Assembly: GCA_045536565.1 (NCBI GenBank) | Contig: JAZSNU010000014.1 | Span: 1 to 36,276, forward strand | DNA length: 36,276 nucleotides | Source: Clostridia bacterium | Lineage (GTDB): Bacteria > Bacillota > Clostridia > TANB77 > CAG-465 | Direction of reading: 5' to 3' | In this document: one piece after another, positions 6,391 through 34,757 of the stretch | How the letters are laid out: each line of letters opens with the position of its first letter | How positions within the stretch are numbered: the stretch's first letter is position 1 | Made by a program: the position numbers and the translations under genes | Notes under the pieces: generated by a model | Databases searched by the model: none | The model's input: only the letters and a program-made list of their open reading frames with translations | Told to the model about the DNA's origin: nothing

Positions 6391-8397
6391 ATGAATTTAG
6401 TAGGTAAAGAGTTAGGAAATAGGTATGAACTATTAGAGAAAATTGGTGAAGGCGGAATGGCAACAGTATACAAAGCAAAATGTAGATTATTAAATAGATA
6501 TGTTGCTGTAAAAGTGCTTAAAGAAGAATATGCCAAGGACACATTGTTTGTTAAAAGGTTTAAAATTGAAGCGCAATCTGCTGCAAGCCTTACACATCCT
6601 AGTATAGTATCAGTTTTTGATGTTGGAGAAGATGATGGTGTAAATTATATTGTAATGGAATTATTAGAAAAAGATACATTAAAAGATTATATTGAAAGTA
6701 AAGGTAAATTAACACCTGATGAAACAATAAATCTTTCTATACAAATTGCATCGGCTTTAGAAGCAGCACATAAATCAAAAATAGTACATAGAGATATAAA
6801 ACCACAAAATATAGTACTTGCAAGAAATAACACACAAGCAAAAGTTACTGATTTTGGTATAGCAAAAATGAGTTCGTCTGCAACAATTACAGCACTTGGA
6901 TCAAGTACAATAGGTTCTGTTCATTATTTTTCGCCAGAACACGCAAAAGGCGGATATACTGATGAAAAATCCGACATATATTCACTAGGAATTGTAATGT
7001 ATGAAATGGCAACTGGTGAGCTTCCGTTTAATGCAGAATCGCCGGTATCTGTTGCATTAAAACAAATACAAGAAGAACCAAAAGCACCAAAAGAAGTAAA
7101 TCCTGAAATACCGGTGGCATTAAATAACATTATATTAAAAGCAATGGCTAAAAACACAACTGATAGATACCAAACAGCAACAGAACTAGTAGAAGATTTA
7201 ATGGTTGCAAAAACAAATCCTAATCAGAAGTTTATAAAATCAAGTTCTGATATATCAAGTTCTGCTACACAAGTTATTCCTATTATTGGTATGAAAGATC
7301 TAGAAGAAAGAAAAGATAGAAGTGATAACTCATCAATGCCTTCTCGTAAAGCATCAAGAAGAAATAAAATAGTAGAGGAAAACACAAGTAGTGACATAAA
7401 AGAGGATGTAGAGGAAGAGGATATATTTGCAAGGCCTAAAAAGAAAACAAATAAAAAATTAATGTTTACATTAATTGGAATAGGCGTAGTATGTGTAGGT
7501 ATATTAATTGGCTTAGGTATTAATTTATTAAGTAAATTTAATGATGATAAAAAAGTTACTATAACAGAAGCGCCTGAACTTCTTGGAAAAGTATATGAAG
7601 AAATAAAAGAAGAATATAAAAAGCAAGGCCTTGTAATATCGCTTGAAAAATATGAATATAGCGCTGAATATGAGGATGGACAAATAATGTCACAATCAAT
7701 TGATGCAGGTAAGACATTACCATCTAACAGAATAAGTGTAGTTGTTAGTAAAGGTGCTAAATTAGTTAAGATGATTAATGTAGTCGGAACTGACTATACT
7801 GTTGCAAAATATGATCTAGAAGCATTAGAATTAGTTCCTGAATTTGAATTTAAGACAGATGATAAAGTAGCAGAAAATATTGTTATATCACAGGAAATTG
7901 AGCCAAATACAGAAATAAAAGCAGGAGATAAAGTAAAGATTGTAGTAAGCCAAGGAAATGGTAAAAAGAAAGTTATAGTTCCAAATGTCCTTACTATGAC
8001 TGAAAAAGAAGCAACAACAACTTTGCAAGAATTAAATCTTAAAGTTAATGTTAATTATTCAGAAGATACAAATAAAGCAAATGGTGTCGTTTTATCTCAA
8101 AGCCAAAAACAAAACGCAGAAGTTGAAGAAGGTTCATTGATAGAACTTACTGTTAACAGAATACAAAAATCAAAGGTTGTTCCTATTCCAGTAGCAAGTT
8201 TTGTTGAAGGAGATACGGAAGAAGATGTAACACTAAAAGTTGTTGCTAAGGTTGAAGGTGTCTCAAATACAATATATGAGAAAAAAGTACCACATCCATA
8301 TAACAGTATAGATGTTAGTGTAAATGGATATACAACAGCAACACTTTCTGTTTACATAAATGGAACATTAAAAAATACACAAAACATTACATTTTAA
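6391..8397 (+). CDS. prkC: PASTA-domain Ser/Thr kinase (PrkC/PknB)
   Basis: IGEGGMATVY, HRDIKPQN, DFGIA, TM helix, three PASTA-like repeats; follows stp. Confidence 0.95.
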   Translation: MNLVGKELGNRYELLEKIGEGGMATVYKAKCRLLNRYVAVKVLKEEYAKDTLFVKRFKIEAQSAASLTHPSIVSVFDVGEDDGVNYIVMELLEKDTLKDYIESKGKLTPDETINLSIQIASALEAAHKSKIVHRDIKPQNIVLARNNTQAKVTDFGIAKMSSSATITALGSSTIGSVHYFSPEHAKGGYTDEKSDIYSLGIVMYEMATGELPFNAESPVSVALKQIQEEPKAPKEVNPEIPVALNNIILKAMAKNTTDRYQTATELVEDLMVAKTNPNQKFIKSSSDISSSATQVIPIIGMKDLEERKDRSDNSSMPSRKASRRNKIVEENTSSDIKEDVEEEDIFARPKKKTNKKLMFTLIGIGVVCVGILIGLGINLLSKFNDDKKVTITEAPELLGKVYEEIKEEYKKQGLVISLEKYEYSAEYEDGQIMSQSIDAGKTLPSNRISVVVSKGAKLVKMINVVGTDYTVAKYDLEALELVPEFEFKTDDKVAENIVISQEIEPNTEIKAGDKVKIVVSQGNGKKKVIVPNVLTMTEKEATTTLQELNLKVNVNYSEDTNKANGVVLSQSQKQNAEVEEGSLIELTVNRIQKSKVVPIPVASFVEGDTEEDVTLKVVAKVEGVSNTIYEKKVPHPYNSIDVSVNGYTTATLSVYINGTLKNTQNITF

Positions 8398-25052: not shown

Positions 25053-25196
25053 TATATTTTAGCTATAACTAATAATGTTATGGCTATTTTTATATATTTT
25101 TTGATAAAATAGTGTACATAACTATTGACTTTACATAAATATTATGTTAAAATAATATCTGTAAAGTGTTCATTTCATGTTAAGGAGGTGCAACTG

Positions 25197-25793
25197 ATGT
25201 ATTATGAAAACAAAAGAAGTTTTTATATTAGACAATATGGACCACCAGTATTAGCTATTACAATTTCTGCAATTTTAATTGTAGCTGGTTTATTTATAGC
25301 AACTAAATCATTAGAAAATGATATAAATAAACAACAAATAGAAAATTTAGTAGCTGATAACGACACATCAGTTGACATATCAAGTACTATGCCGGAAGAC
25401 TTAGTTAAATTAAAATCTTTTACTAAATCAAAAGAATATACGGTACACGCTATTAGTGATGACGGAGCAGTAGTAATTGAAACTTCCAAAAATGAATATT
25501 TTAAAATAAATCTAATTGGTGTTGAAAGTTCAAATAAATATGCTTCTTTAAAAGAAAAAATGGAAGAAGAATTAGTAAACAAAAAAATCACTATTGAATT
25601 TGATAACTCAAAATTAGATAAAAATAAGGCTTATGCTTATGTATATGTAAATGACAAATTATATAATACTGAAATTCTTAAAAATGGCTATGCTGTTTTA
25701 AGAGTTGAAAGAAAAAATGTTGACAAACTTGATTTACTACTTCAAGCAGAAACAGAAGCAAGAAAAGCAGCAGTTGGAGTTTGGGAAGCGTAA
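25197..25793 (+). CDS. Membrane-anchored thermonuclease (SNase)-like protein, active site degenerate
   Basis: TM helix then KINLIGVE, AYVYVNDKLYNTEILKNGYA, AETEARKAAVGVW; ATG 25197 after AAGGAGG. Confidence 0.75.
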   Translation: MYYENKRSFYIRQYGPPVLAITISAILIVAGLFIATKSLENDINKQQIENLVADNDTSVDISSTMPEDLVKLKSFTKSKEYTVHAISDDGAVVIETSKNEYFKINLIGVESSNKYASLKEKMEEELVNKKITIEFDNSKLDKNKAYAYVYVNDKLYNTEILKNGYAVLRVERKNVDKLDLLLQAETEARKAAVGVWEA

Positions 25794-25925: not shown

Positions 25926-25977
25926 ATACTTGTACTGAAAAGTGCAAATCTAAAATATAATTATGGAGGAAAAAAAC

Positions 25978-26406
25978 ATGAGCTTTAATAAGATTAAGGA
26001 TAAGATTAAAAATCTATTGCTTAACAAAAAAGAAGAGGAAGAAAACGTAAATGAAGGTGCATATTGGAAAATGTTAGGTATGAACATTCCACTTTCATTT
26101 CCTTTACTGCAAGAAACAGTAAAAGACAGGACAGAATTTTCTAGCGTTGTAAGAGGTGCTGAAGATCTTCTGGAGCAAGATTTCAAAAGGTTTGGCATAA
26201 AATTCAAAGTGATTGATCCAGTATACAAAAACAACCTTAATGGAAATATTGGAAGCATGACTGTTGTTGTTGATGATAATGATAAAGTAACAGCTAAATT
26301 CCATAGACGTGACGATAATGGATTATGGGATGGTATGTCTAAAAAGTTTCCTGAGGAAGATACAACTGGAAAATATATCGATGAAATTTGCTTTATTATT
26401 ATGTGA
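25978..26406 (+). CDS. Hypothetical protein, about 142 aa
   Basis: GGAGG 8 nt before ATG 25978; own promoter and terminator. Confidence 0.7.
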   Translation: MSFNKIKDKIKNLLLNKKEEEENVNEGAYWKMLGMNIPLSFPLLQETVKDRTEFSSVVRGAEDLLEQDFKRFGIKFKVIDPVYKNNLNGNIGSMTVVVDDNDKVTAKFHRRDDNGLWDGMSKKFPEEDTTGKYIDEICFIIM

Positions 26407-26422
26407 CAATCGCTAAAAAACG

Positions 26423-26456
26423 AGAGTACAAGTTAAATTGCTTGTACTCTTATTTT
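26423..26456. terminator. Bidirectional terminator between convergent genes
   Basis: AGAGTACAAG / CTTGTACTCT stem. Confidence 0.65.
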
Positions 26457-26937
26457 ATATATTTAATTTGCTGATTAATATTGATTCAATATATTGTAAT
26501 TTGTATTCTATTTCATTTATCTTAACCCTTTCAAAATCAGCATTCACAGATTCTAATATATAATCTTTCTTTATATCTTTTTCCTTTGTTATAAACATAT
26601 GATGGGAGTTATCATCTAATTCGATTAATATAATTGGTCTACAATACTTATCACAAATAGTAAAATCTATATGTTTACTTTTAATTTTATTAAAATCAGT
26701 AATATTATTTGTATTTATTAAATCTGCTAATCTAATCTTAGGAAATATATATAACTCATATTTATCTGTAATACTTTTTAATTTATAAAAAAATGATAAT
26801 TCATTTTTGGTGAGTATATATTTACACTTTTCTCCTGAAAAAGAGTAGGTAACTGATGTGCTATTTTTATTATTACTATACAATGTAAAAATATATAGAA
26901 TAAGTAACAGTATAATTATTAAAACAATAAATATCAT
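26455..26937 (-). CDS. DUF2726-family membrane-anchored protein (restriction-endonuclease-like fold)
   Basis: TM helix, ILTKNE..FF, KIRLADLI, KHIDFTICD, IELDDNSH, KDIKKDYIL. Confidence 0.8.
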   Translation of the reverse strand: MIFIVLIIILLLILYIFTLYSNNKNSTSVTYSFSGEKCKYILTKNELSFFYKLKSITDKYELYIFPKIRLADLINTNNITDFNKIKSKHIDFTICDKYCRPIILIELDDNSHHMFITKEKDIKKDYILESVNADFERVKINEIEYKLQYIESILISKLNI

Positions 26938-27037
26938 TAATTAATCAACCCCTTATTAAGATTGTATTATATTATATATTTTTTATTTGTCGAAGTTTGT
27001 CATATATTAAAAGAAATGGTTGAATTTATTCTTAATA

Positions 27038-27066
27038 TTGATTATGTTTACATAATATGGTATAAT
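27038..27066 (+). promoter_or_regulatory. Sigma-A promoter of the 92-aa ORF
   Basis: TTGATT-17 bp-TATAAT with TG. Confidence 0.6.
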
Positions 27067-27103
27067 TTATGAATATTATAAAAATAATAGAAAGGATAGT
27101 ATA

Positions 27104-27382
27104 ATGTGCTTAAAAAATATGGTTTTAAGGAATTTTAAAAGTAGAGTAAAAAGTAATAGAATGCCTTTAAAATTTACAGCGTATGAAATGGAATTAGTAA
27201 TAAAATGTCTATCGACAGGATATAGGTGTTTTGATAAAGAAAAATTTTTGTTCAATGATAACAATTCTGATAAAGAAAATATTTATTATTTACAAAGGGT
27301 TCTAGGTTGTAAGGCCAATGAACATTTCTACGATATTAAAAATAACGAATTTTTTAAATTGCGTAAAAAGATTAAATCATAA
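27104..27382 (+). CDS. Hypothetical basic protein, 92 aa
   Basis: AAGGA RBS, promoter upstream, hairpin downstream. Confidence 0.6.
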   Translation: MCLKNMVLRNFKSRVKSNRMPLKFTAYEMELVIKCLSTGYRCFDKEKFLFNDNNSDKENIYYLQRVLGCKANEHFYDIKNNEFFKLRKKIKS

Positions 27383-27453
27383 ATATATTTTTAAAAGCCA
27401 TGAAAGAGAAGAGAGTATTTAAAAATACATCTTATTATTTTATGGTTTTTATA

Positions 27454-27481
27454 ATTGCGCAAAATATAAATTTTGTGAAAT
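27454..27481. other. Candidate dif (chromosome dimer resolution) site
   Basis: ATTGCGCAAAA-TATAAA-TTTTGTGAAAT; 11-6-11, arms 9/11 symmetric, 21/28 identical to E. coli dif as recalled; about 320 bp upstream of a xer gene at the gene-strand switch. Confidence 0.7.
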
Positions 27482-27557
27482 AAAGGGTATAAAACTATTG
27501 CATAATATTCATTTATTTGATATTATATCTTATATATGATTATACTTATTATTTAAA

Positions 27558-27588
27558 GCCTTATTTTTGATTTTAAAGCGTTTTTATT
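27558..27588 (-). repeat. Xer-locus motif copy A (inverted)
   Basis: Reverse complement AATAAAAACGCTTTAAAATCAAAAATAAGGC fits AATAAAAA-N4-TTAAAAT-N6-TARRRC. Confidence 0.55.
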
Positions 27589-27730
27589 TATTATCAGATA
27601 TATTTTTTACTTCTATTATTATACTACTTTATTAAAAATATTACTATTCTTTATATAATTATGCTAAAAAACATTCAAATTATATAATTTTTGTAAATTG
27701 TATAAATGAGTCCTTTTTTTGAGGTTACCT

Positions 27731-27786
27731 GGGATATACCCCGGACAATAAAAATGGCTTAAAATCGATTTTAGAGCGTCGTTTTT
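27731..27786 (+). repeat. Xer-locus motif copy B
   Basis: GGGATATACCCCGGACAATAAAAATGGCTTAAAATCGATTTTAGAGCG...; 43/56 ungapped identity to copy C. Confidence 0.85.
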
Positions 27787-27799
27787 TGGAGGTTATTTT

Positions 27800-28765
27800 A
27801 TGAATGCTAATAACTATGATGATGTATCAAATATAATAAAAGATTATCTATTATATATGCTTACAATTAAAAATAGATCAGCAGCAACTGTAAAAGAATA
27901 TTATTATGATTTAAGAAATATGTTTAGATATATTAAAAGGGACAAGTTTAATATTAAAACTGATAATTTAGAAGAAATTGATGTTACAGATTTAGATATA
28001 GAATTTTTTAAAAATTTAACATTATCAGATTTTTATAATTATTTATATTATATGTCAAATGACTTAAATTCAAAGCCGGTTTCAAGAGCTCGTAAAGTTG
28101 CAACTATAAAATCTTTTTTTAATTATCTTTGCAATAAAGAAAAAGTTTTGACCGTAAATCCTACAATAGATTTGGAAACACCAAAATTAGGAAAAAGAAT
28201 TCCTAAATACCTGAACTTAGATGAGGCTGTTTCCCTACTCCACTCCGTTGATGGTAAACATAAATCTAGGGATTACGCTATACTTACATTATTCCTAAAT
28301 TGTGGTCTTAGATTATCTGAACTTGTTAATATTAATCTAACGCACATAAGGGGCGATATATTAACGGTTATAGGTAAAGGTAATAAAGAACGCTCTATTT
28401 ACCTAAATGATGCATGTAAAGATGCGATAGCTACCTATCTTAGAGAAAGACCAGTAGATGGTGTTATTGATAAAGATGCTTTGTTTTTAAGTAGTAGATA
28501 TAAAAGAATTGGAAGAAGAACAGTTGAGGTAACTGTTAAAAAATATATTATAAAAGCCGGATTAGATCCAAACAAATATTCGCCACATAAATTAAGACAT
28601 ACTGCTGCTACATTGATGCACAAGCACGGAAATGTAGATATAAGATCTCTGCAACAAATACTTGGCCACGAGTCAATTTCTACAACTGAAATATATACAC
28701 ATATAGATAGTGATGAAGTAAGAAATGCACTCGATAATAACCCATTAAATAGTAAAAATATATAG
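27800..28765 (+). CDS. xerC: XerC-family tyrosine recombinase
   Basis: N-terminal SAM-like domain (SRARKVATIKSFFNYL); catalytic set GLRLSE, GKGNKER, HKLRH, LGH, TTEIYTH intact. Confidence 0.85.
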   Translation: MNANNYDDVSNIIKDYLLYMLTIKNRSAATVKEYYYDLRNMFRYIKRDKFNIKTDNLEEIDVTDLDIEFFKNLTLSDFYNYLYYMSNDLNSKPVSRARKVATIKSFFNYLCNKEKVLTVNPTIDLETPKLGKRIPKYLNLDEAVSLLHSVDGKHKSRDYAILTLFLNCGLRLSELVNINLTHIRGDILTVIGKGNKERSIYLNDACKDAIATYLRERPVDGVIDKDALFLSSRYKRIGRRTVEVTVKKYIIKAGLDPNKYSPHKLRHTAATLMHKHGNVDIRSLQQILGHESISTTEIYTHIDSDEVRNALDNNPLNSKNI

Positions 28766-28775
28766 ATAATAAAAA

Positions 28776-28804
28776 TTAAGAGAGGTTTAATTATCCTCTC
28801 TTAA
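28776..28804. terminator. Bidirectional terminator between xer and the LysM gene
   Basis: TTAAGAGAGG / CCTCTCTTAA perfect stem. Confidence 0.7.
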
Positions 28805-28823
28805 ATAATATTTTATAATGAAT

Positions 28824-29126
28824 TTAGTTATATAAAGGCACTTGTATTATTTTACCCTCAATAATTTCATTACTATTCAAATTATTAATTTCTTTTATAT
28901 CGTAAATAACCTCTTGTATATTTAAACTAGAATCTTCTTTGCAGATTGTACTTGAAATACCCCATAGAGTATCACCAGATTGTACAGTAAATTCAGTTGT
29001 TTTAATTTCTTTTTTACCAAATATTTGAGAAGTAAATATATTAAATATTATAAATGTAACCAATAAAAATAATATATTTCTAACTATTTTACCACCATCA
29101 ATTTTATATCTTTTTACTCTTTTCAT
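28824..29126 (-). CDS. YneA-like SOS cell division inhibitor (TM plus LysM)
   Basis: TM helix, TVQSGDTLWGIS...IKEINNLNSNEIIEGKIIQVP; two SOS boxes upstream; ATG 29126 after GAGGTG. Confidence 0.8.
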   Translation of the reverse strand: MKRVKRYKIDGGKIVRNILFLLVTFIIFNIFTSQIFGKKEIKTTEFTVQSGDTLWGISSTICKEDSSLNIQEVIYDIKEINNLNSNEIIEGKIIQVPLYN

Positions 29127-29144
29127 ATATATCACCTCTAAAAA

Positions 29145-29195
29145 GAACTGTTGTTCTTATGGTTATATTATAATACATGAACATTTGTTTGTCAA
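29145..29195 (-). promoter_or_regulatory. Sigma-A promoter with two LexA boxes
   Basis: GAAC-TGTT-GTTC (29145-29156) and GAAC-ATTT-GTTT (29179-29190); minus-strand TTGACA (29190-29195)-17 bp-TATAAT (29167-29172). Confidence 0.85.
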
Positions 29196-29264
29196 CATCT
29201 TTTTATAATTTTTTTAAATTTTTATAAATAATATTAAACATGAGGTTTTGCAAAGCGACCTAGA

Positions 29265-29320
29265 GGGATATACCCTAAGCAATAAAAATGTCTTAAAATG
29301 GGTTCTAGGACGCCTATTTT
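29265..29320 (+). repeat. Xer-locus motif copy C
   Basis: GGGATATACCCTAAGCAATAAAAATGTCTTAAAATGGGTTCTAGGACG...; direct repeat of copy B. Confidence 0.85.
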
Positions 29321-29396
29321 CACTAAGGTGATTATGAATCGTATAAAAAATTAACAGACATTATTAATACTATAAGTAATTTGCATTGATGGTTAT

Positions 29397-29430
29397 AACA
29401 GCTTAGATTAATTTCTAAGCTGTTTTTCTT
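29397..29430 (+). terminator. Plus-strand terminator-like hairpin with no annotated gene upstream
   Basis: AACAGCTTAGA / TCTAAGCTGTT stem with T run on the right side. Confidence 0.55.
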
Positions 29431-29433
29431 TAC

Positions 29434-29468
29434 AAAAAAGAAGAAATACATTTTATTGTATTTCTTCT
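29434..29468 (-). terminator. clpX terminator
   Basis: AGAAGAAATACA / TGTATTTCTTCT stem with A run on the left. Confidence 0.7.
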
Positions 29469-29476
29469 ATATATTC

Positions 29477-30760
29477 TTACTTTGCACTTTTTGAAGTAGT
29501 CTCTTTTCTTATATATGTTGGTTTTGCATTTTTTGTAACAACATCTTTTGTGATAATACATTTTTTGATTGTCTTATCAGATGGTACTTCATACATAGCA
29601 GTAAGCATAACCTTTTCAAGAATCGACCTAAGTCCTCTTGCACCAGTTTTTCTTTCTATGGCAAGATTAACTATTTCATCAAGTGCATCTTTTTCAAATT
29701 CTAAGACTACATCATCCATCTTAAACATTTTCTTATATTGCTTAATAATTGCATTCTTAGGTTTTGTTAATATGTCAATAAACGCTTTTCTATCTAATTG
29801 ACCAAGTGATGTTATAATAGGAAGTCTACCAACCAGTTCTGGAATTAAACCAAATTTAATTATGTCGTGAGGTAAAACTTCTGAGAATATAGATGCATAA
29901 TCTATTTCTTTTTTCTCTTTTATCTTAGCACCAAATCCCATTACCTTTTCACCAGTACGAGCCTCTATAAGTTTTTCTAAGCCTTCAAATGCACCTCCAC
30001 AAATAAATAATATGTTAGATGTATCTATTTTAATATATTCTTGTTGTGGATGTTTTCTTCCACCAGTAGGAGGTACTGCTGCAACCGTTCCTTCAATAAT
30101 TTTAAGTAGTGCTTGTTGAACTCCCTCACCACTTACATCTCTTGTAATAGATGGATTTTCAGATTTTCTAGATATTTTATCTAATTCATCTATATATATA
30201 ATACCTTTTTCTGCTTTTGATATATCATAATCAGCGGCTTGAATAAGTCTAAGTAAGATATTTTCTACATCTTCGCCAACATATCCAGCCTCAGTAAGTG
30301 TAGTAGCATCTGCTATTGCAAATGGAACTCTTAATACTTTGGCTAATGTTTGGGCTATAAGTGTTTTACCAGAACCAGTAGGTCCGATCATTAGGATATT
30401 ACTCTTTTGAAGTTCTACTTCATCTATTTTATCCATATTTTTTATTCTTTTATAATGATTGTATACAGCAACAGATAACACTTTTTTGGCCTCATGTTGT
30501 CCTATAACATATTCATCTAATATTTTATTAATATGTTCAGGCGAAGGTATTTCAGTATTTTCAATTACTTTTGCTTCAATTTCATTTAATTTATCTTCAT
30601 CTTGCATTATATCTTCTAATATAATACGATTACAAGTATCAATACAATCATCACATATAAATATCCCGTTTGGTCCTGCAATTATTTTATTAACTTCATC
30701 TTTATATCTACCACAAAATGAACAAAAAATATCAAAATCAGTATTTCTTTTCTTTGGCAT
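29477..30760 (-). CDS. clpX: ATP-dependent Clp protease ATP-binding subunit
   Basis: CSFCG zinc finger, [50 protein letters not shown]. Confidence 0.98.
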
Positions 30761-32827: not shown

Positions 32828-33988
32828 TTAATTTTTAATAATTACTTTATCTGAATTCGAAAAAGATATATACTTTACAGGTACTTCTAAGAAAAACTCA
32901 ACAATAGCAACAAATTTTTTACAACTTTCCGGTAAATCACTATATTCACTAATTTTGGTATTTGAAATATCCCAGCCACCATATGATATAGGAAGATATA
33001 TAGGCTCACACTCTTCTAAATCATATGGAACATAATTAATAAACTTATCTTTATATCCATATGCACAACAAACACGCATATTATGATTTAATACTTTTCC
33101 TATAACATCAATATTGTTTATGCATATATTATCTATTTTATTAGTTAAACATGCATATCTAATAAATGCCAAATCTAGATAACCATATTTTTTACTTCCA
33201 TAAGAGCAATCAATTTCACTTTCAATATTTTCTAATTTTTGGGCACATTCTTCATCCATTATAGTAGGAAGATTTTCTGCACTATTAGTTGATGTGTATG
33301 CTTTCATTATTCCAATAACTTCTTTTACATTTGCTTCTGAAATGCCAACAGATGATAATTTATTTCCTATATCAGAAAATACCTGTGGACCTTGAACAAT
33401 AACTTTTTTATCTTTTTTTATTTGTTCATTTACATAGTAAGACACATCACACACGTATTCTTTCAAATGCTCATATATGGCAGTATATTCCTTAACTAAA
33501 TCAGATATAATGTTACATGCAGAGCCTTTTCCATCAAAAAATTTGTAAGAGTGTACAATTCTCGATATTTCACCTTTTAATTTTTCTGTATTAAATAAAT
33601 CATGCATTATAATATCACACTCATTTGCAGTATTAAGAACCTTACTGTTATATGATATTGTTATTTTTACTCTATCGCTAATTTTAAGATTGTCTGGCGA
33701 AACCTGTATACCTGCTTTTTTCAGTTCAGCAAATTCAAATATTAATTCCTGTAAATTAATGATATTTTCAGGTCCTATTACAGTCGTAATATTATTACAC
33801 AAGATCGATTCTGGTACTAGTTTTATTAAAGACTCATTACCATCGTTTAATGATACTTTGAATGATTTATTATTTAATAATGTTGTATGAACAACAATAT
33901 CAGCATTCTGATATTTGAATTTTGCAATTTTCCTTTTATCTTCATCTGCATATTGTAAACCTGTAAATACTGTTACATTTCTTTTCAT
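32828..33988 (-). CDS. Adenylosuccinate synthetase (PurA)-like protein, catalytically degenerate
   Basis: Colinear with PurA (GLQYADEDKRK, LKISDR, GIMKAYTS, GYLDL, CEPIY, GW, LPESCKKFV) but ligand-binding loops changed or deleted. Confidence 0.8.
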   Translation of the reverse strand: MKRNVTVFTGLQYADEDKRKIAKFKYQNADIVVHTTLLNNKSFKVSLNDGNESLIKLVPESILCNNITTVIGPENIINLQELIFEFAELKKAGIQVSPDNLKISDRVKITISYNSKVLNTANECDIIMHDLFNTEKLKGEISRIVHSYKFFDGKGSACNIISDLVKEYTAIYEHLKEYVCDVSYYVNEQIKKDKKVIVQGPQVFSDIGNKLSSVGISEANVKEVIGIMKAYTSTNSAENLPTIMDEECAQKLENIESEIDCSYGSKKYGYLDLAFIRYACLTNKIDNICINNIDVIGKVLNHNMRVCCAYGYKDKFINYVPYDLEECEPIYLPISYGGWDISNTKISEYSDLPESCKKFVAIVEFFLEVPVKYISFSNSDKVIIKN

Positions 33989-34124: not shown

Positions 34125-34757
34125 TTAATACCAATCTGGCAAACTCACACCATGTAGTTTGAACCAAATTTCCTTAGCAGTCTTAATTCCACAATTTTTC
34201 ATTTCAACAATATCATCTGATGAAAGTTTCATGAGTTGCTCATAATGTATATAACCGTTACTTTTAAGGCAATTATATGCTCTTGTGCTAAATCCCAAAT
34301 CATCAATTGTTATTTCTGCTGTGTTTTTGCCACCTATTATTTTAGTATAATAAGCAATTTCTCTTTCAATTTCTTTTTTTCTAGTTTCTAATACTTGAAG
34401 TTTATGTGGTATATAGAATACTGACTTTTTATATGATAAATTCAAAAAAGCTCTATTAACCACTTGTCTAACTCTCTCGGTAGTAATACCATTTTCGTTA
34501 GCAATATAATGTAATGTTTTAGGTACACCATCATAAAGTCCATATTTATGCTTTAAGAATGTTCTCTCATTTCTTTTTAACATATCTATACACTTTTTCA
34601 ATTCTTCAAAAATCAAAGAATTTTCGGGGATTTGCATAGTTCCTAGAAGTTCAGTTGCTAATAAATAATAAATCTTTATGAGTCCATTTGGTATTGCATA
34701 CAAATCGCAAAATGCAGATATCATATTCCTTTGTACATCGTAATTACTCTTTTTCAT
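34125..34757 (-). CDS. Sigma70 region 4 plus RNA polymerase alpha-CTD fusion protein
   Basis: LKRNERTFLKHKYGLYDGVPKTLHYIANENGITTERVRQV (region 4 HTH); IDDLGFSTRAYNCLKSNG...MKNCGIKTAKEI (alpha-CTD). Confidence 0.8.
   Translation of the reverse strand: MKKSNYDVQRNMISAFCDLYAIPNGLIKIYYLLATELLGTMQIPENSLIFEELKKCIDMLKRNERTFLKHKYGLYDGVPKTLHYIANENGITTERVRQVVNRAFLNLSYKKSVFYIPHKLQVLETRKKEIEREIAYYTKIIGGKNTAEITIDDLGFSTRAYNCLKSNGYIHYEQLMKLSSDDIVEMKNCGIKTAKEIWFKLHGVSLPDWY

Follow-up and report, generated by a model that had tools for sequence, protein, structure and literature searches.

How does a clostridial chromosome resolve its dimers, and does it do so with one recombinase or with two? Chromosome dimer resolution is taught as a process of XerC and XerD. 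The question is raised by a 36,276-nucleotide stretch of a Clostridia bacterium (GenBank assembly GCA_045536565.1, contig JAZSNU010000014.1, positions 1 to 36,276; hereafter the window), which carries a 28-bp inverted repeat resembling a dif recombination site (27454..27481) and, starting 318 bp downstream of it, an intact open reading frame (ORF) for a Xer-type tyrosine recombinase of 321 amino acids (27800..28765, + strand). A first-pass annotation of the window had taken this pair for a candidate single-recombinase Xer/dif module at the replication terminus. Having compared the locus with related genomes and with a sample of the class, we consider it very probable that the 28-bp element is the chromosome's dif, lying beside its own recombinase gene, and somewhat more probable than otherwise that the adjacent enzyme, as cognate recombinase, forms with it a terminus module resolving dimers. 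The window is the whole of contig C18 in a 1.13-Mb genome of 22 contigs, which has a GC content of ~28% and is rated 100% complete.

A single-copy dif-like site at the skew switch

On the forward strand, the element reads ATTGCGCAAAA TATAAA TTTTGTGAAAT, an 11-6-11 arrangement with its left arm at 27454-27464, its centre at 27465-27470 and its right arm at 27471-27481. The arms are complementary at 9 of 11 positions, and at 10 of 12 if the same 28 bp are divided as 12-4-12 (ATTGCGCAAAAT / ATAA / ATTTTGTGAAAT), so that the site described in the first-pass annotation, with arms 9/11 symmetric about 320 bp upstream of an intact gene, is borne out. This is the form of a dif site, which spans 28-31 bp with two inverted arms of about 11 bp around a short centre. 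Within the window alone such a repeat is unremarkable (a repeat finder returns 12 inverted repeats, this one included, between 27000 and 28000, in DNA of 23-28% GC), and it is comparison that lifts it above chance. The exact 28-mer is present once in the genome, one copy per chromosome as for dif, and its runner-up match has 6 mismatches. A degenerate 20-nt core, CRCAAAATNNNNATTTTGYR, scanned against 41 related genomes, matched 26 of them, 24 at a single place, while the reversed pattern used as a control gave 1 match over all 41. When six genomes of the window's genus are compared, the stretch separating the upstream gene from xer cannot be aligned, except for the site with its immediate flank and a leader of ~90 nt.

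The position of the site is that of a terminus. GC skew in the window is positive to ~28 kb and negative after it, and the cumulative curve forms a plateau at 28000..29000 with its maximum at 28,600 (100-bp resolution), 1.1 kb from the site, the plateau covering part of xer and the DNA just after it; the extremum had been expected near 27.5 kb. C18 is the only one of the 22 contigs with an internal cumulative-skew maximum, and C12 the only one with an internal minimum, of the origin type; the terminus is placed, in this 22-contig assembly, by skew and not by distance from oriC. We retrieved as much as 10 kb of flank to either side of the site from 20 relatives. The cumulative maximum lies no more than 2.5 kb away in every one of them, in several at the site itself. 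Skew is positive to the left and negative to the right in 19 of them, the twentieth having just 150 bp on the right. Since this position is kept in G012 and G019, where the gene lies 2.0 and 3.4 kb from the site, and in G015, where the gene is on another contig, the site tracks the skew switch and not merely the gene.

Gene orientation flips from + to - directly after xer, as had been noticed from the window alone. Left of the flip the large genes are all on the + strand (polA, a lytic transglycosylase, yebC, a nuclease), and rightward from 28824 the larger ORFs are all on the - strand (a YneA-like LysM gene, clpX, clpP, tig), with the LysM gene (28824..29135, - strand) as the first gene of the opposite replichore. 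The canonical motif CATAA-N6-TTATG is absent from C18, and its two genome-wide matches both sit on contigs of monotonic skew. Unique, conserved and placed at the skew switch, the element behaves as the chromosomal dif that it had been proposed to be.

Orthologues of the recombinase are present in 39 of the 41 related genomes, at 51-86% identity. Among 30 loci fetched, 24 carry the site (no more than 6 mismatches to the window 28-mer), always upstream of the gene and on its strand; the remaining six comprise two with the site at 2-3.4 kb, two with it on another contig, one at a contig end and one in which none was found. The gap between site and gene is 20-1000 bp in most loci, and in family f3 there is no gap between the site and the ribosome-binding site of xer. 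The inner motif CAAAA/TTTTG, which had been read as a variant of CATAA/TTATG, is likewise real, being conserved upstream of orthologues both in these relatives and in genomes from across the class.

A wider scan with TTKCRCAAAATNNNNATTTTGYG against one genome per species returned at least 119 stretches and 80 loci. The pattern leaves four outer right-arm positions free, and the scan therefore did not impose arm symmetry. Among the matches listed, 49 loci match on both strands and 31 on one; an orthologue (40-65% identity) lies within 5 kb in 37 of the former against 2 of the latter. Skew changes from + to - at 23 of the 28 both-strand sites that are accompanied by the gene and by 3 kb or more to either side, compared with 2 of 20 one-strand matches lacking the gene. 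These listed matches come from Clostridia metagenome bins, Oscillospiraceae, Ruminococcus, Monoglobus, Eubacterium-labelled bins, Peptoniphilaceae and several named Anaerococcus species. Of 201 class genomes sampled evenly, 145 have a single-copy orthologue, at 41-67% identity. Among 26 of these loci, taken with 1.5-kb flanks, a CAAAAT-N4-ATTTTG site was found in 17, its outer bases being ATTATAC or ATTAGAC; in two of the 17 the right core begins with G or T. Eight class loci lie on long contigs; the skew maximum is within ~1.2 kb of site or gene in five of them, and two of the eight have variants of the inner motif that are symmetric too. The arrangement had been called clostridial, which is correct as far as it goes, but it is class-wide and not peculiar to this organism, and its scope had been understated.

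Two further dif-like motifs, with 6 and 8 mismatches, were seen on contig C14 of this genome (G000; ~67460-70413, L209:3461-6414). They sit in the arms of an inverted duplication of ~350 bp with two small paralogous genes, and between these arms lies an ISL3-family insertion sequence with perfect 26-nt ends. We considered the motifs (67460, 70386) as marking an integrated element or invertible segment; lying in this inverted duplication, on a contig of monotonic skew, they were judged to have no relation to dif. Operators of the LexA, Rex and CRP types, compared with the window's repeat by consensus sequence only, were also rejected, as the orientation and spacing of their half-sites do not fit.

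The linked recombinase and Xer gene content

The enzyme encoded beside the site, characterised from its ORF, its PF00589 domain, an alignment and a tree, has an N-terminal SAM-like domain and a PF00589 catalytic domain scoring 125 bits. All of the R-K-H-R-H-Y residues expected of a tyrosine recombinase are in place: R171, H263, R266 and Y299 are invariant in the alignment, and the Lys of GKGNKER and the His of LGHES are present. Of the NCBIfam models, that for XerC (TIGR02224) fits it best, but with 217 bits against a cut-off of 335, and the enzyme likewise stays below the cut-offs of the XerD model (TIGR02225; 196 against 329.6 bits), the XerA model (NF040815; 202.8 against 220) and the XerS model (NF003462; 137.5 against 267, matching only residues 153-313 in the C-terminal half). 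In a tree of 51 proteins, 20 enzymes of the linked type form one clade with a support of 99 in the SH-like approximate likelihood-ratio test (SH-aLRT). A long branch divides this clade from the XerC- and XerD-type proteins of the phylum, which lie across a 99-supported branch from the recombinase, and the clostridial XerD-like proteins nest within the XerD-type clade (support 100; the tree is unrooted). The linked clade may be a fast-evolving descendant of XerC or something older, between which an unrooted tree cannot tell. The gene had been assigned to the XerC family and the arrangement likened to that of XerS. By curated scores and by tree the enzyme is neither; the likeness to XerS holds for the linkage of site and gene, as in difSL and xerS, but does not extend to the protein.

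Directly before the xer start codon is a conserved leader (27714..27799, + strand), which includes CTTAAAATCGATTTTAGAGCGTC, followed by a T-run and then GGAGG. It is near-invariant in the six genus-level loci and present in most of family f1, and it contains a near-palindrome. An Rfam scan of 26900-29500 at E <= 1 gave no match, and the predicted RNA fold of the leader is no better than that of shuffled sequences (z = -0.32). A scan of 27300-28900 for promoters and terminators was uninformative, with 15 promoter-like sites against 13.0 expected and 0 terminators.

The genome contains three PF00589 matches: the linked enzyme, a broken integrase on contig C10 and a XerD-like protein on contig C15. 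The integrase (G000, C10 ~7050-7850; L003:1279-2081) is of the phage type and interrupted by a stop codon, leaving 235 amino acids and a short piece; no further remnant of a tyrosine recombinase is present in the genome. The C15 gene is intact, adjoins a spoIIM-like gene and encodes 303 amino acids with the catalytic residues present, scoring 323 bits against the XerD cut-off of 329.6. The linked enzyme is consequently not the sole Xer-type recombinase here: a candidate XerD partner, the existence of which the first-pass annotation had left unsettled, is encoded on another contig, and the label of a single-recombinase module does not hold as a statement about gene content.

Across the class, presence was called at protein E <= 1e-45 for the linked type and a XerD profile E <= 1e-72. 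By these thresholds, 92 of the 201 genomes have both enzymes, 53 the linked type only, 25 the XerD-like only (families f6 and f16, for example) and 31 neither (families f10, f11 and f19, for example). Of 5 Anaerococcus genomes, 4 have no Xer-type gene besides that of the linked enzyme, and the next-best matches to the XerD profile are phage-type integrases of 360-420 amino acids with at most 88 bits. XerC above its curated cut-off was found in 0 of the 201 class genomes, compared with 57 of 101 genomes of a phylum-wide sample, most of them with two high-scoring paralogues. At one locus from an Oscillospiraceae bin (L114:3154-3999), a XerD-like gene lies 1 kb from a palindromic site, on the side opposite the linked xer, and its product has substitutions at the catalytic Lys (SRRAER for KGNKER) and the second His (LGL for LGH).

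One protein or two at the arms

Repeat differences within E. coli dif give XerC and XerD their specificity (Keller 2016), so the form of the two arms bears on how many proteins read them. Outside the window's order, 32 of 36 loci have the same outer 7-mer on either arm, which falls into one of three classes (ATTGCAC, ATTTCGC and ATTGCGC). Other loci add the symmetric classes ATTATAC and CATAAAC. Moreover, neighbours in the protein tree differ in both arms at once, as in L116 compared with L119 and L105 compared with L057 and L071. Arms that are identical and change jointly are what a single DNA-binding species would produce, and the pattern suggests that one recombinase recognises both. Symmetric sites occur both with a XerD-like gene (family f3, L114) and without one (Anaerococcus), so the presence of XerD-like does not track the form of the site.

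Several observations weigh against reading the site as the target of one enzyme. Within the window's own order, just 2 of 27 loci are fully symmetric: the left, gene-distal arm is kept as ATTGCGC or ATTTCGC, and the outer bases of the right, gene-proximal arm drift to ATTTCAC, TTTTCAC, AATACAC or ACTTTAC. With respect to the gene the asymmetry faces one way, which is what a site for two proteins would show. An independent-contrast test of co-variation had only 5 and 3 usable pairs, with median p = 1 and 0.5, and because this tree-corrected test is not significant at such numbers, the argument for one protein rests on the raw pattern. Mutation that corrects palindromes could also help symmetry, and the wider scan favours palindromes, which offer it two strands to match. 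The XerD-like gene, moreover, is intact in this genome and in 41 of 41 relatives, and the upkeep of a catalytically intact enzyme in a reduced genome of 1.13 Mb suggests that it still recombines something. As to position, 3 of the 8 long-contig class loci have no skew switch within 10 kb of the gene.

The intact XerD-like gene and the fixed asymmetry of the arms speak for a two-recombinase dif, at which the linked enzyme would be a diverged XerC bound to the left arm and the XerD-like protein from C15 would bind the right, FtsK activating XerD as in the E. coli model. The XerD-like gene accompanies the linked enzyme in 92 of 145 class genomes, and the L114 locus has both genes flanking the site; the right arm also resembles published XerD half-sites. 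On the other hand, the perfectly symmetric arms of family f3 and L114, both of which have a XerD-like gene, leave nothing by which two proteins could be distinguished. The same type of site and linked gene persists where no XerD-like was found, and the XerD-like protein at L114 is the one altered at its catalytic Lys and second His positions. We therefore regard the two-recombinase explanation as unlikely, if a serious contender. For this genome we tentatively favour a single recombinase serving both arms, as had been claimed at the outset: the claim draws on the symmetric loci outside the order and on the genomes without XerD-like, but finds little echo in the arms of the order itself. The first-pass annotation is in sum right about the architecture and probably right about the mechanism.

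The repeat might instead be a regulatory element only, namely an operator or a hairpin in the 5' untranslated region of xer, or a terminator for the gene upstream. This DNA is rich in inverted repeats, and several lineages have the site 7-26 bp ahead of the start codon or ribosome-binding site of xer, where a bound protein would probably affect expression. Such a role does not account for a site that is single-copy, has the geometry of a tyrosine-recombinase site, keeps to the skew maximum even with the gene 2-3.4 kb off or on another contig, and is conserved across the class while its spacing to the gene ranges from 7 bp to 3.4 kb, and we consider it very improbable. That the pair is an integrase and att site of a mobile element, near the terminus by chance, is more improbable still: gene-plus-site modules do resemble integration modules (a point made for XerS by Le Bourgeois 2007) and variable small genes (DUF2726, nuclease) lie left of the site, but the gene is single-copy in 145 of 201 class genomes, in the protein tree the genus, family and order of the window stay together, C18 has no element flanked by a second att-like copy, and relatives retain the position at the skew switch.

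Other features of the neighbourhood stand apart from these questions. Just left of the site are a DUF2726 gene (26455-26937, - strand), a staphylococcal-nuclease-like gene (25125-25793, + strand) and two small ORFs without a family match (25963-26406 and 27104-27382), which together make up a seemingly variable gene patch at the terminus. Further right, 34125-34757 (- strand) encodes 210 amino acids with the unusual pairing of a region like sigma-70 region 4 (residues 44-108) and an RNA polymerase alpha C-terminal domain (PF03118, residues 145-202). The 386-amino-acid product of 32828-33988 (- strand) resembles adenylosuccinate synthase in two separate stretches, at 179 bits against a PurA cut-off of 402, and may be a divergent or degenerate purA product.

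A proposed mechanism and its relation to known systems

Sequence comparison shows what the site is, that it is unique and conserved, where it lies, its linkage to the gene and the Xer gene content; from this we infer that the linked enzyme binds this site and catalyses recombination there, in dependence on FtsK and independently of XerD. The linked Xer clade would replace canonical XerC in the class Clostridia, and its cognate site would have a CAAAAT-N4-ATTTTG core with outer bases that are usually mirror images. Two copies of the one recombinase would occupy the two arms, four of them in the synapse of two sites, and strand exchange would take place across the AT-rich centre. The trigger would probably be FtsK, which in this genome is encoded with alpha, motor and gamma domains, acting at the septum during division; FtsK dependence is reported for both XerS and XerH (2017 review; Debowski 2012). 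In the window's family, the kept left arm and the drifted right arm would amount to a strong and a weak half-site. This may determine which strands are exchanged first, as has been proposed for difSL and difH (2017 review). At loci where site and 5' end of xer overlap, binding would in turn influence expression, a feedback of the kind on which Le Bourgeois 2007 speculated for difSL. XerD-like would not be required for recognition of the site; a candidate role without strand exchange is the unloading of SMC at the terminus, B. subtilis XerD being cited as a sequence-specific SMC unloader there.

Extended to the class as a whole, the proposal is that one Xer encoded at the terminus acts, in place of XerC/XerD, on a palindromic CAAAAT-N4-ATTTTG dif located ahead of the gene that encodes it, any surviving XerD being kept for another task such as SMC unloading. 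We advance this wider claim tentatively, at a little short of even confidence. Were it true, it would add a further single-recombinase system to XerS, XerH, XerA and XerL, by far the most widespread bacterial one, and raise the question of what XerD is for where dif can be read without it. The data point in any case to a different arrangement in a large class of medical and ecological importance, including gut Clostridia, Oscillospiraceae and Anaerococcus: the class sample has no canonical XerC, a distinct Xer clade stands beside a mostly palindromic dif, and no XerD-like was found in about a quarter of the genomes. Practically, the arrangement would offer a simple sequence rule by which the terminus could be found in fragmented metagenome bins, and a compact gene-plus-site module for marker excision in anaerobes.

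The single-recombinase systems named in the available literature are XerS, XerH, XerA and XerL, the exceptions lying in streptococci and lactococci, epsilon-proteobacteria, archaea and Legionellales, and other firmicutes are described as users of XerC/XerD (2017 review; Kono 2011; Le Bourgeois 2007; Nolivos 2010; Debowski 2012; Keller 2016; Smyshlyaev 2021; XerL preprint). A clostridial single-Xer system is not described in the available parts of these sources or in open full text, a coverage that leaves out subscription journals, and among the full-text matches listed for six arm motifs none concerns Xer or dif. Some clostridial sites may already be listed as canonical dif in survey tables (Kono 2011; Le Bourgeois 2007). 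For Clostridium perfringens 13 and C. beijerinckii, Kono 2011 reports dif as not found, and the site type described here may bear on such failed profile searches in some low-GC clostridia. The Xer/dif principle itself is known; what appears to be new is a linked-recombinase Xer/dif module belonging to a distinct clostridial clade.

Compared with XerC/XerD and dif of E. coli and Bacillus, the present system has the same 28-bp, 11-6-11 site at the terminus, a XerD-like gene and a gamma-domain FtsK, and the closest solved structure to the linked enzyme by sequence is XerD. It differs in that no XerC reaches the cut-off, gene and site are linked, the inner motif reads CAAAA/TTTTG, and the arms are symmetric in most relatives, whereas arm differences are what confer XerC/XerD specificity (Keller 2016). 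XerA/dif of archaea and XerL/dif of Legionellales share with the proposed system a single Xer whose site is low in GC, partly palindromic and located at the skew maximum. The enzyme here falls below the XerA cut-off, and XerA is reported to be FtsK-independent (2017 review); XerL, compared by description only, is presented as a divergent clade restricted to Legionellales (XerL preprint). XerH/difH of Helicobacter and Campylobacter has the single-enzyme logic proposed here, a site near the gene and a strong and a weak arm, but XerH is longer (354-362 amino acids), belongs to a different phylum and is the more distant structure by sequence match (5jjv, E = 4e-15, against 1.3e-36 for XerD, 1a0p).

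Closest in layout is XerS/difSL of streptococci and lactococci, the linkage of which has been contrasted with XerCD (Le Bourgeois 2007). There too the gene adjoins its site at the terminus, the inverted repeats that form the arms are imperfect and have an inner motif of the A4/T4 type, and a XerD-like gene can coexist. XerS, at 356 amino acids against 321 here, is a different protein by its profile, and difSL spans 31 bp with an 11-bp centre, as opposed to 28 bp with a centre of 4-6 bp at the clostridial site, the arms of which are nearer to symmetry than those of difSL.

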